50,883 bases of DNA from Candidatus Nomurabacteria bacterium (GCA_026395915.1 JAPLXU010000017.1:3023-53905), one strand, 5' to 3'; positions 6,849 through 20,161 are shown, numbered from the stretch's first letter. Program-made: numbers and translations. The notes: generated from the sequence alone by a model not told the origin.

Positions 6849-7955
6849 ATGAAAAAAATATTTTTAACTGTATCTTATCTTTTAGTCACTATTTTAGTCG
6901 GAGTCACAGTCGTTTATGCGGGCAATCTTACTCCACCCGGACCAGTCGCAAATACAATGTATAGCTTGACTGATATATTCAACCTGTCAGCAGGCACGAC
7001 TACGACATTAGGAACTGGGGTCATACCCACGACACCTGCTTCAATTGTCGCAACTGGTAAAACTTTAACAGAAGTCTATGATGCCATATCCGCCCAGCTT
7101 GGTATTTTATCTGCTGGTAAAATTGCTAAAAACATTTCTGCTTTCGGGTTTACTGGCGCTCTTTACGGAGATGTTGATGCTTCTAAAGTTCTTACTTCGG
7201 CCACATATGCGGGTACTATGGCAGATAAGACAGGATTAAATGTTGCCTCTACTGCTCAATCTCAAGCAGGTGGCGTAAATTACTTTACGGCGGCTCAAGG
7301 TTATTATGATGGCACAGCGAAAGTTTCTGCCACAGACGCGCAGATTGTGGCTCTTAATTCTAGTTTAGTCACTGGCAACATAAAAAGTGGCGCGACTATT
7401 TTCGGAGTTGCAGGAAGCGTCAGCGGAGGTTCTTCTGCCGGTTTTTTAAAAACTAATCAAACTATATGCTACGACACAGCAGGTAGTGTCGTAGCCTGCG
7501 CAGGCACTGGTCAAGATGGAGAACTGTTAAAAGGCACAGCCCGCTCTTATACTGACAACAATGATGGCACTATTACAGACAATTCTACTGGTCTTGTCTG
7601 GCAAAAATGCTCAAAAGGTTTAAGTGGCACCATTTGTGAGACTGGTTCAGCTGTAACTGCGACTTGGGCGGATGCGCTTACCTATTGCAATGCTAATACT
7701 GCTACTCTTCCCGGTAGTGGTTGGCGTTTGCCGAATGTCTATGAGCTTTACAGTCTGGTCGATTTCGGAGTCGCGAGCGCTCCATTTATCAATACCAATA
7801 CAACTGCGTTTCCCGCTACAGTGAGTGCCAACTACTGGTCATCTACTTGTCGGCCTGCTAACTTCACGTACGCCATGCTCGTGAACTTCAACAACGGCTT
7901 CACGAACGGCTACACTAAGACCAATATCCTCTATGTTCGCTGTGTCCGAGGATAA
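6849..7955 (+). CDS. DGR target protein: secreted, DUF1566/Lcl C-type lectin-fold C-terminus
   Basis: Signal peptide; YTDNNDGTITDNSTGLVWQK, WRLPNVYEL, YWSST..YVRCVR; VR at the 3' end. Confidence 0.93.
   Translation: MKKIFLTVSYLLVTILVGVTVVYAGNLTPPGPVANTMYSLTDIFNLSAGTTTTLGTGVIPTTPASIVATGKTLTEVYDAISAQLGILSAGKIAKNISAFGFTGALYGDVDASKVLTSATYAGTMADKTGLNVASTAQSQAGGVNYFTAAQGYYDGTAKVSATDAQIVALNSSLVTGNIKSGATIFGVAGSVSGGSSAGFLKTNQTICYDTAGSVVACAGTGQDGELLKGTARSYTDNNDGTITDNSTGLVWQKCSKGLSGTICETGSAVTATWADALTYCNANTATLPGSGWRLPNVYELYSLVDFGVASAPFINTNTTAFPATVSANYWSSTCRPANFTYAMLVNFNNGFTNGYTKTNILYVRCVRG
7807..7950 (+). repeat. DGR variable repeat (VR)
   Basis: Ungapped alignment to 8515-8658 (offset 708), 17 mismatches. 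Confidence 0.97.
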
Positions 7956-8000
7956 TTTGGTTATTTGGGTATTTGTTCATTTTGCATTTTTTTAAATCCA

Positions 8001-8360
8001 ATGGCTCAATATTCTCATCTTCCTATATATAACACTGCATTTATTCTGCTTCGCGAAATGTATGAGCGGGTGCCGAAGTTTGGAAAACAATACAAATATT
8101 TATTGGGAGAAAAAATTATCGGAGCGAATATTGAAATTATCCGTCTAATTCTCGAGACGAATAATACTCGCGATGCGGTCAAGAGAAAAATTCTGCTTGA
8201 GCATCTAGTTTGGAATTCCGAGTCGATTATTATTTTCTTACGGATAGCGAATGAACTAAAGCAATTAGGAGGGGAAAAAAGTTATCTTTATCTTCTTGAA
8301 AAAACGGTAGCTCTTTCAAAACAAGCTGAGGGCTGGAGGAAAAGCGTTTCTAGAATTTAG
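8001..8360 (+). CDS. avd: DGR accessory variability determinant (Avd, four-helix bundle)
   Basis: HLPIY..FGKQYKYLLGEKI..LRIANEL..LSKQAEGW pattern; lies between target and TR. Confidence 0.88.
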   Translation: MAQYSHLPIYNTAFILLREMYERVPKFGKQYKYLLGEKIIGANIEIIRLILETNNTRDAVKRKILLEHLVWNSESIIIFLRIANELKQLGGEKSYLYLLEKTVALSKQAEGWRKSVSRI

Positions 8361-8514
8361 AAATGTGTCCCCAGAATTTATGATCCGCAGGATTATAAAG
8401 CGAGGGTTTGGGAATTCAGTTTCCGCTCTTTGTTGTCTTTTGAGTTTAATTTCAGAAAAAAAAGATAACAGAGGATAAAAGTACTCGATGGTCACGGACA
8501 GTCGGAAACTTCTT

Positions 8515-8658
8515 CGTTTCCCGCTACAGTGAGTAACAACTACTGGTCATCTACTTCACGACCTGCTAACTTCACGAACGCCATGAACGTGAACTTCAAC
8601 AACGGCAACACGAACAACAACAATAAGACCAATAGCAACTATGTTCGCTGTGTCCGAG
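8515..8658 (+). ncRNA. DGR template repeat (TR)
   Basis: AAC-rich copy of VR with 15 in-frame AAY codons; between avd and RT. Confidence 0.97.
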
Positions 8659-8697
8659 CACTCCCGCCTCCAGTCCCCAGTCTGTTTTATATTTCTT

Positions 8698-9800
8698 ATG
8701 TCAACTATCTTTACATTAGAAAAGCTCTATAAGGCATATAAGGAATGCCAAAAAGGCAAGAAAAACACAATTAACGCACTTTGTTTTGAAGTGGAACGGG
8801 AGAAAAATTTAATACTGCTTCTCAATGAGCTTCAAAGTGGAACATACGAGATATCGCGTTCTGTTTATTTTATTGTTACGAATCCGACTGCCCGTGAGAT
8901 ATTTGCCGCTGATTTCCGCGACCGGATAGTGCATCATCTTTTATGCAATGAAATTCAAAATATATTTGAAGCGGATTTTATTTCTGACTCATATGCAAAC
9001 AGAAAGAGAAAAGGTACGCATAAAGCTGTAGCGCAACTTCAAAAATATACTAGAGAAGCAAAGAGCAAAACAAAGAATGGATACTATCTTAAGCTTGATG
9101 TAGAGAGTTTTTTTTGTTCGATCAATAGAGAAATTCTGTATTCTATTGTTGAGAAAAAGATTAGAGATTGTTCACAACCTGTCGGGGGGGGGCTTCGAAG
9201 GAAATGAATTTAATACAGTGGCGAAGTGAGACGCTCTCCCTTGCAAAAAAAATAATTTTTCACGACCCGACGAAAAATTATTTTTATAAAGGTGATCCAA
9301 AGAAAAAAGCTCTTATTCCTCCTCATAAATCACTTTTTTGCGTCAAAAATAAAGGCTTACCGATTGGCAATCTCACTAGTCAGTTCTTTGCAAATGTGTA
9401 TCTCAATGAGCTCGATCATTTTGTGATTGACACCCTTGGCATTGAAAGATATATCAGATATGTTGACGATTTTGTTATAGTTCACGAAGACAAGAATCGG
9501 TTAACATCTGTTACGAAATCTATAGACATCTTTTTGAAAGAGATACTCGGTTTACGAATTCATCCTAAGAAAATATATCTTCAAGAGATTTACAAAGGCA
9601 TTGATTTTTTGGGCTATTTTATCAAACCCTCTCATATATTAGTTCGGCAGAGAGTAGTTCGGAGGTTTAAAAATCGTTTATATCAAAATATTGACGAAGA
9701 AGGATTTTTACTAGTTTCTAACATTCCAATGATACAGTCTTATCTAGGACATTTTGGACATGCAAATACTTTTAATCTGAAGAAGAAATTGGCAAGATAG
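8698..9800 (+). pseudogene. DGR reverse transcriptase, frameshifted at G9 tract 9184-9192 (possibly phase-variable; 367 aa if G10)
   Basis: N-half REIFAADFRDRIVHH, KGTHKA, YYLKLDVESFF; C-half GLPIGNLTSQFFAN, YIRYVDDF, GIDFLGY; the two frames overlap across the G tract. Confidence 0.93.
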
Positions 9801-18815: not shown

Positions 18816-19673
18816 TTATTTGTCGGTGATGATACTTAATATTATTATTGAAACAAAGGCGACAAGAAATCCAAAAATTTGATGGCGTTTCAATTTTTCT
18901 TTGTTGAAAACTAAACCAAGAAAACTGGCGAAAGCGATATATCCTTCGCTGATACTTGTTGCAATGGCAATCGGAATATAGAGTGTTGCAAAAGAAAACA
19001 TTACCCAGGCTAAATTATCAAAAAAACTCACATTAAAAATCAATCTTTTGTTTTCTTTAAAATCTTTTGCGATCTCTTTTAATCTGGAATTTGAAGCGAG
19101 ATAAACTAAGGCGATAACAGCAATAAAAACGCTAGTAAACCAGTTTATCATCAAAGGACTGATCGTTCTTGAACCGAGCCCAAACATAAAATTAGCTATT
19201 CCCATGCATAGAGTTCCAAAGATGGCATACAATATTCCTTTTTCGAGTTTCATTCCTTTGAAATGGCTGAAAGATTTTGTCGACACAAGGAAGATGCCGA
19301 TCATAGATAAGCCAACCAAAAGAATTTGTAAAAAAGTTAATTTTTCTCTGATTATAAACGTGGACAAAAATATAACCACAATAATTTCAAAAGCATATAT
19401 TGGTTCCACGATGGAAATTTTACCTATTCGCAGAGCTTCAAAGTTGAGCAAGGCCGCGAATAATGTCGCGAGTCCTGCTATTAAGAGCAAGACAAGATAG
19501 TTGCTGAAAGAACTTGCTAATTCGTTATAGACAAAGGGGAACAAAACAATTGCGGCGAATGCGGTTATATAAAATAAAGCAATCCAATCGCCGAATTTTC
19601 TAGCGCTTTTCTGAATAAGAAAATCGCCGAGACCCCAAGAAAATAATGCAGTTAATGCAAAAAGAATACCCAT
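18816..19673 (-). CDS. EamA/DMT family transporter
   Basis: About 10 TM, two EamA repeats (WGLGDF, GKISIVEPI, REKLT, KEKL). Confidence 0.9.
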   Translation of the reverse strand: MGILFALTALFSWGLGDFLIQKSARKFGDWIALFYITAFAAIVLFPFVYNELASSFSNYLVLLLIAGLATLFAALLNFEALRIGKISIVEPIYAFEIIVVIFLSTFIIREKLTFLQILLVGLSMIGIFLVSTKSFSHFKGMKLEKGILYAIFGTLCMGIANFMFGLGSRTISPLMINWFTSVFIAVIALVYLASNSRLKEIAKDFKENKRLIFNVSFFDNLAWVMFSFATLYIPIAIATSISEGYIAFASFLGLVFNKEKLKRHQIFGFLVAFVSIIILSIITDK

Positions 19674-19740: not shown

Positions 19741-19770
19741 TTGACTTTACCTGTCGGGGGGGGGTAGACT
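19741..19770 (+). promoter_or_regulatory. Putative sigma70 promoter with a G9 tract in the spacer
   Basis: TTGACT-18 nt (ttacctgtcGGGGGGGGG)-TAGACT upstream of the 19799 ORF. Confidence 0.65.
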
Positions 19771-19798: not shown

Positions 19799-20161
19799 AT
19801 GAATTTTGATCAACCGCCAGTTGCAATAAAACAAGAGAAAGGGTTGGATATGAAAAAGATGGGTGCACTTGTTCAATTATCAGGTACTATCAGATTAGAG
19901 GATGGTGGAGAAATTCTTCCTGGTGCTTCTGAAGAAGATAAAAAAACATTTGGAAGTAATAATGGTTTTATTTCTTTTGTAACCGAAGGCGGAGTTCAGT
20001 ATGTTACCAAATATTCTTCTAAAAAGGCATTAGATCTTGAAATCGCTGGTTATAGACGAGCAGGTCTAGGTGTGCCATTCTCCAATGGAGAGAAACCCTC
20101 AGGTAGTAGTCAATTTATTTATAATCAATGGGAAAGAATGGTGCACGAAAAAGCTGACTAG
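19799..20161 (+). CDS. Hypothetical protein
   Basis: 120-aa ORF with its own promoter and a downstream terminator. Confidence 0.75.
   Translation: MNFDQPPVAIKQEKGLDMKKMGALVQLSGTIRLEDGGEILPGASEEDKKTFGSNNGFISFVTEGGVQYVTKYSSKKALDLEIAGYRRAGLGVPFSNGEKPSGSSQFIYNQWERMVHEKAD

Follow-up and report, generated by a model that had tools for sequence, protein, structure and literature searches.

Two groups of described systems come closest to the locus reported here. In the contingency loci of Campylobacter jejuni, Neisseria and Haemophilus, an intragenic run of at least eight G or C within an AT-rich genome toggles the reading frame by one base; the tracts, which are polymorphic in length and often conserved between strains, gate genes for surface structures. 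Phase-variable promoters, in which a homopolymer occupies the spacer, are represented by Neisseria porA and opc and by Bordetella fim. Two sources take a tract of at least seven G or C as their working definition (PMC4965091, PMC6321876).

The second group comprises the diversity-generating retroelements (DGRs), with that of Bordetella phage BPP-1 (brt, avd, TR and mtd) as prototype. Its reverse transcriptase (RT) carries the motifs IGxxxSQ and YxDD, an Avd protein is present, the differences between template repeat (TR) and variable region (VR) are adenine-specific, and the VR lies at the 3' end of a target of ligand-binding type. The replacement of QGxxxSP by IGxxxSQ, together with YxDD, is the defining motif of DGR-type RTs. 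No homopolymer control has been described for this prototype.

In the literature searched, no work connects DGRs to homopolymers, to simple sequence repeats or to control by phase variation; what came up on phase variation was of a general nature and did not concern the control of DGR genes. Neither 'homopolymer' nor 'phase' occurs in the consulted part of Wu et al. 2018 (PMC5758913), and according to a recent preprint on Bacteroides DGRs it is still to be discovered which signals and mechanisms control mutagenic retrohoming. An RT-internal tract is a rare placement for a repeat-tract gate, and a gate of this type was not found in print; nor were the poly-G tracts in RTs of CPR DGRs that the preliminary description of this DNA mentioned as already noted.

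A retroelement complete in its parts, with a divided reverse transcriptase

The window, by which we mean the whole 50,883-nucleotide stretch analysed, derives from a freshwater Candidatus Nomurabacteria bacterium. Positions 6849-9800 hold a DGR that is complete by its make-up and is here called DGR1. Its features are as follows, with the evidence for each in brackets.

6849..7955, + strand: target gene of DGR1, 368 aa, its C-terminal domain being of the Lcl_C/DUF1566 type (Pfam Lcl_C, E 2.1e-29)
7804-7950, + strand: VR, at the 3' end of the target gene (alignment to TR)
8001..8360, + strand, that of the RT: avd1, accessory variability determinant (bAvd, DivGenRetAVD and CPR Avd profiles)
8506..8660, + strand: TR of DGR1 (local alignment to VR; blastn against the genome)
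8698..9207, + strand: N-terminal half of the RT, 169 aa (ORF list; RVT_1 profile positions 10-91)
9184..9192, + strand: G9 homopolymer, the site of the frameshift (sequence; contigs of four out of four sequencing runs)
9204..9800, + strand: C-terminal half of the RT, 198 aa from ATG 9204, with the frame open from 9168 (ORF list; RVT_1 positions 111-203)

[quoted passage not shown] The VR differs from the TR at 18 of 147 nt, with TR adenines accounting for 15 of the 18; in a longer local alignment of 155 nt, TR adenines are found at 16 of 22 mismatches. A TR/VR pair of this kind, with a 3'-terminal VR and differences almost only at adenines, indicates that DGR1 was active in the past. The avd1 assignment rests on matches to Pfam bAvd (E 6.5e-9, 36.7 bits, under the 40-bit cut-off), to NCBIfam DivGenRetAVD (E 8.5e-5, likewise under the curated cut-off) and to a CPR Avd profile made in this analysis (E 7e-35), of which avd1 is itself one of the 12 seeds. 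There is no repeat tract at the avd1 start, and avd1, TR and target gene are all intact.

Two paralogous DUF1566-type gene ends elsewhere in the genome resemble the DGR1 TR (contig C8:417-556, 74%; contig C3:52504-52582, 81%). They were rejected as current targets on account of their many non-adenine differences, and may be old or former ones. A G7 hairpin lies some 160 nt past the paralogous gene on C3.

The N-terminal half of the RT starts at ATG 8698 (an alternative ATG is at 8641), a start that fits the M-x-T-I-F-T of its relatives, and stops at the TGA of 9205-9207, five codons past G9. The C-terminal half, in the -1 (= +2) frame relative to the first, contains IGNLTSQ and YVDD. The ATG of this half shares the sequence ATGA (9204-9207) with the N-terminal stop codon and is preceded by AAGGA. 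Both halves match the RVT_1 profile, which is 205 positions long. Among solved structures the C-terminal half is best matched by 8ub7_A ('Reverse transcriptase', E 1.7e-19), a chain that we take to be the RT of phage BPP-1. The enzyme is therefore of the DGR type by its IGxxxSQ and YxDD motifs, and DGR1 resembles the BPP-1 element in RT motifs, Avd, adenine-specific TR/VR pair and 3' VR in a target of ligand-binding type. It differs from BPP-1 in that its RT is frameshifted: the allele present is split at G9 and inactive.

By arithmetic, a G10 allele would encode a fused RT of 367 aa, and reading through as if the tract were G7 (two four-base steps over it) gives 365 residues from 8701 with no other stop. 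The joined reading aligns to 29 relatives over 99-100% of its length with 54-67% identity, and retains all 87 columns that are invariant among the 30 aligned sequences, YVDD and IGNLTSQ included; neither the read-through nor this 30-sequence alignment revealed a second lesion in the 1.1-kb gene. A one-base toggle of frame, in an intragenic G run of at least eight bases in an AT-rich genome and with no other inactivating lesion, is the likeness to the contingency loci of Campylobacter jejuni, Neisseria and Haemophilus. The tract itself is located 1.3 kb from the VR, between motif 2 and the block preceding IGNLTSQ, in columns that are gapped and unconserved among the relatives; the consulted part of Wu et al. 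2018 (PMC5758913) assigns motif 2a to this interval. The preliminary description had claimed that G9 splits the RT into two overlapping frames which G10 or G7 would fuse, that the halves are otherwise sound and that the break falls in a variable linker, and in each of these respects it is borne out.

Long G/C runs and the repair background

As had been remarked in that description, a G9 run is unusual in the window, which contains two of them and neither a G7 nor a G8. The rarity extends to the genome, a scaffolded draft MAG with N's, of 812,327 bases and 39% G+C. Its plus strand holds 14 G6, two G7 and two G9 runs, as well as 19 C6, two C8 and one C9, so that runs of G or C of at least eight number five in 812 kb. 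Two of these five are inside DGR enzyme genes; by our own arithmetic, the probability that two of five long runs should fall by chance within the approximately 3.1 kb of RT and avd genes is about 1.4e-4. GGG is, furthermore, the rarest glycine codon of the genome, at 12% usage.

Profiles for MutS_V (PF00488) and MutL_C (PF08676) found no match in this 95.65%-complete genome, while controls scored in 11 of 14 genomes. A repair background of this permissive kind is what would be looked for at a contingency locus, and Campylobacter is likewise not known to possess MutS or MutL. By analogy with Campylobacter, G/C runs in the present genome should be unstable.

Two of the other long runs, on contigs C4 and C11 (a C9 at C4:54278 and a C8 at C11:16169), belong to a common hairpin element of about 35 nt. 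The copy on C4 adjoins TGTGGATAA, presumably a DnaA-box-like sequence, and precedes an ORF resembling ribosomal protein L34; this neighbourhood may be the replication origin region.

Absence of the tract from related reverse transcriptases

The preliminary description had suggested looking for conservation of the tract in homologous RTs, and none was found. No run of G or C of at least six occurs in any of 112 related RT regions (80 from metagenomes plus family-genome loci, with regions longer than 1600 nt skipped). In another set, of 80 species representatives with 37-58% identity, no run reaches seven, one C6 is present and no RT is split. Taken by cassette type, none of about 165 RT genes from cassettes of the same type has a run of at least seven or is split. 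The comparison is necessarily one with rather distant sequences, the closest relatives being only 58-67% identical: none closer than 67% was found in any collection searched, and the best matches of the read-through RT were at 63% in metagenome contigs and 58% in 200 family genomes. The tract is a lineage-specific one in which no polymorphism was seen, in contrast to the polymorphic and often strain-conserved tracts of Campylobacter, Neisseria and Haemophilus.

Split RTs are themselves infrequent, at four of 270 other RT loci, two of them broken at (GA)n and two without such a repeat at the break. The former two, L197 from the same genus with (GA)10 and L203 with (GA)6, carry their repeats in the same linker between motifs 2 and 3, just ahead of G-I/V-P-I-G-N-L-T-S-Q (L197:1400-1570; L203:1380-1560). 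In each the frame is displaced by a single repeat unit, the avd starts of both loci are free of repeat tracts, and among 190 other RT loci they are the only ones with linker repeats of this kind. The single other RT-internal repeat is an (AT)5 in L227, which is outside the linker and leaves a single frame.

Runs of G8-G12 were also observed near DGRs of the co-oriented type, outside the RT (L193/L305, L359, L360, L313, L316, L350 and L372); at L193 and L305 a G10 closes a hairpin 16 nt upstream of the avd ATG. A role for poly-G as ribosome-binding site of the RT was considered and rejected: it would suit some loci, such as L199 with a run 7 nt before the ATG, but not DGR2, the second DGR of this genome, in which the run is 51 nt upstream.

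Only the out-of-frame allele is seen

The tract was followed in Logan contigs from four sequencing runs (X1, X2, X4 and X8), which come from three studies, are dated 2022-2025, may share one campaign and may include the source sample. All four contain G9 (depth 7.6-11.9, no gaps), and at a threshold of 1% no indel is present at 9184-9192 in their contigs. Tract-length polymorphism is thus absent at contig level, although a minority of G10 is possible in these runs because contigs drop rare variants. The two halves of the RT are recorded separately as called proteins, on four and three contigs respectively, and a fused allele is absent among the best 120 matches from 5.8 billion protein clusters, where the top match has 64% identity.

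The VR is equally uniform: it is identical among the four runs, with contigs unbroken through it, and differs from the window at the single position 7849, where the window has G and all four runs have C, the TR base. Since this is a non-adenine site, the difference is an ordinary substitution or a MAG error. With G9 invariant, the VR static and no fused allele on record, we infer that DGR1 is out of frame, or OFF, in most cells of all the samples, and the static VR fits a long OFF period.

Upstream of the VR, breaks occur at 7559-7580 in the contigs of X2, X4 and X8, and one piece in X1 stops at 7482. All four runs also contain, at substantial depth, a variant contig with the changes 7535 C>T, 7541 C>T and 7550 T>C, which may come from a different strain or from a paralogue of the target gene.

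Two outcomes had been named in the preliminary description as telling against a switch. The first, G10 in all reads, is contradicted by the four runs. The second combined an invariant G9 with decay elsewhere in the gene, and only its first half was found.

Repeat tracts at the avd start of related retroelements

The genome has a second DGR, DGR2, outside the window at 13370-15543 of contig C4 (loci L188 and L189). Its RT frame is intact (336 aa) and its avd is divergent in orientation. The avd2 gene, a bAvd-like ORF (E 4.6e-8), carries a C8 run at codons 5-7, in frame with its ATG. The ORF extends over 189 aa, a consequence of its antisense course across the adenine-rich TR.

Tracts at this position are frequent. 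Of the 23 family cassettes in which avd and RT have opposite orientations (within L195-L218), 12 have C8-C11 at the avd start, one has about ten GGTCC units and ten have a plain ATG. Among 80 Patescibacteria avd relatives (L219-L298, with avd at about 1501), 68 have a run of C7-C14 there (4 C7, 8 C8, 22 C9, 23 C10, 10 C11 and 1 C14). The remaining 12 comprise two with C6 and ten without a C run of at least six, six of the ten having instead GTCA, CCAG or CAAT units or a 7-mer repeat at that place. The C run ends a few bases ahead of the conserved I-L-P-V-L codons. Measured against the nearest open upstream ATG, a noisy assignment, the phases at the 68 loci are 18 ON, 28 at +1 and 21 at -1. Different repeat types at one position, variable in length, are a hallmark of contingency loci, and from these sequences repeat-tract gating appears to be common in CPR DGRs, usually at the avd start.

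A bias of the avd tracts to one OFF phase, such as programmed +1 frameshifting would give, was entertained and dropped: among the 12 family loci with C8 or longer, 8 of 9 OFF tracts shared a phase, but the bias was gone in the 68-locus set.

The avd-start tracts resemble the G9 of DGR1 in being G/C homopolymers within a gene that a DGR needs, in the same bacterial group. They differ from it in being conserved (68 of 80) and in belonging to cassettes with divergent avd and RT, whereas G9 lies in the middle of the RT, in a cassette with co-oriented avd, and is unique among its relatives.

The sequence around G9 and its second copy

The G9 tract forms part of a 16-nt block that is present twice in the genome, both times within the window.

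9177..9192, + strand: ACCTGTC followed by G9, first copy, within the RT (sequence identity)
19749..19764, + strand: ACCTGTC followed by G9, second copy, intergenic, its G9 being 19756-19764

The second copy is flanked by an EamA-type transporter gene (18816-19673, minus strand) and by an orphan gene of 120 aa (19799-20161), for which no family match was found and which has no orthologue in any of 60 genus genomes. It falls in the 18-nt spacer of a promoter-like pair, TTGACT/TAGACT. The spacer-tract promoters of porA, opc and fim therefore find their likeness in this second G9 and not in the RT tract, and the pair itself is at chance level, one having been found against 0.9 expected. In the contigs, X1 and X8 end at the second G9, X4 crosses it and X2 has almost no depth there.

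The flanking heptamer ACCTGTC occurs 56 times on the two strands of the genome, a frequency of about 3e-5 per site. The 16-mer was rejected as a widespread motif, with 105 matches in 596 Gb, a number at or below chance by our own arithmetic; five of the 105 sit exactly at the avd start of unrelated CPR DGRs. Were 17 nt at the tract taken away, an RT linker of 13 residues would be left. The closest relatives have 12-13, and since the lengths then agree the tract may have arrived as a block.

A possible reversible gate, or possibly a dead gene

We propose, tentatively and at a little under an even chance, that the G9 frameshift is a reversible gate on the DGR1 RT. A slipped-strand change in a lineage-specific G tract, either the loss of one base from G10 or the gain of two by G7, would have put the RT out of frame, so that DGR1 is OFF in most of the population in all available samples. 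The G9 would revert often, frequent reversion being expected of a nine-G homopolymer in a length-tolerant linker and in a genome with no detectable MutS or MutL, and would thereby switch hypermutation of the target gene ON and OFF at random. The logic would be that of the avd-start tracts of most related CPR DGRs, the in-frame DGR2 among them. While the tracts of Campylobacter, Neisseria and Haemophilus gate surface-structure genes, the present one would gate a mutator enzyme acting on one target.

In favour of such a gate, the frameshift is the sole lesion, one G restores the frame, and the rare long runs of the genome cluster in DGR enzyme genes. Against it, there is no length variation, the VR is static, no fused allele is recorded and the tract is unconserved; the avd tracts differ in place and in cassette layout; and all three RTs known to have linker repeats, counting L197 and L203, are OFF, which fits decay as well. 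Slipped-strand phase variation, as put forward in the preliminary description, is hence sustained in principle, by the missing MutS and MutL and by the avd tracts, but without variation in tract length, in ON state or in VR to accompany it. A useful rate of slippage, the existence of ON cells and the selective maintenance of the tract would all have to be supposed.

The main rival, which could well be correct even if we think it somewhat doubtful, holds that the RT is a nascent pseudogene: the G run of a glycine-rich linker slipped once, DGR1 is dead, and the gene is bound to decay, with a tract that regulates nothing. It accounts equally well for the invariant G9 and static VR of all four runs and for the lack of the tract in every RT relative of the same cassette type examined, and the lack of any recorded ON allele speaks for it; with DGR2 intact, loss of DGR1 may be tolerated. 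It does less well with the absence of a second lesion in 1.1 kb and with the clustering of long G/C runs in DGR enzyme genes. Every family-invariant residue of the RT is kept, as are avd1, TR and target gene, and three GGG codons in a row plus a further G are an unlikely outcome at 12% GGG usage. A G9 in the absence of MutS and MutL should moreover revert, so that a dead DGR1 requires reversion to go unselected.

An improbable alternative is that recoding yields full-length RT at a low level, through -1 ribosomal frameshifting on G_GGG_GGG or through slippage of RNA polymerase, so that DGR1 is throttled and not OFF. The shift needed is indeed -1, the tract reads in the zero frame as a perfect X_XXY_YYZ heptamer, and no more than five codons separate it from the zero-frame stop. 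Transcriptional slippage is known to rescue homopolymer frameshifts in endosymbionts and IS elements, a precedent for this alternative, but in bacteria it is documented mainly for A/T runs. No convincing stimulator was found (the fold of 9177-9290 has z = -1.7, with 10 of 200 shuffles as good, and pairs the tract itself), the site is unconserved in relatives, and the static VR argues against current activity.

It is very improbable that the halves are translated separately, the second by restart at the ATGA, and assemble into an active split enzyme. The stop/start overlap at 9204-9207, the AAGGA just upstream and the position of the break in a variable linker between conserved blocks are what this would call for. 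The AAGGA is, however, only 1-2 nt from the ATG, splits at four of 270 other RT loci amount to no conserved two-gene form, and the VR is static. Finally, errors are frequent in homopolymers, and the MAG is a draft with N's, but a true G10 misread as G9 is scarcely credible: a single-assembly error is largely excluded by the G9 without gaps in four separately assembled runs of three studies, by the split proteins called on four and three contigs, and by the avd2 C8 assembled in frame.

A wider form of the reversible gate may be stated, which we consider unlikely as a whole. CPR DGRs would be gated by stochastic repeat tracts in either of the essential enzyme genes, with the avd start as the usual site and the RT linker as an occasional one; the combination of DGR1 OFF with DGR2 ON would represent bet-hedging over the timing of hypermutation in each target; and the 16-nt block would spread by copying. 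If this were true, a copied block could install a switch in a new gene in a single step.

Significance for the host

A heritable, reversible and random switch in an enzyme gene would be a simple means of limiting the cost of a DGR in tiny genomes with few regulators. If the G9 of DGR1 is such a switch, the majority of cells would retain a proven target protein while a few explore. The present genome offers two DGRs in opposite states for comparison.
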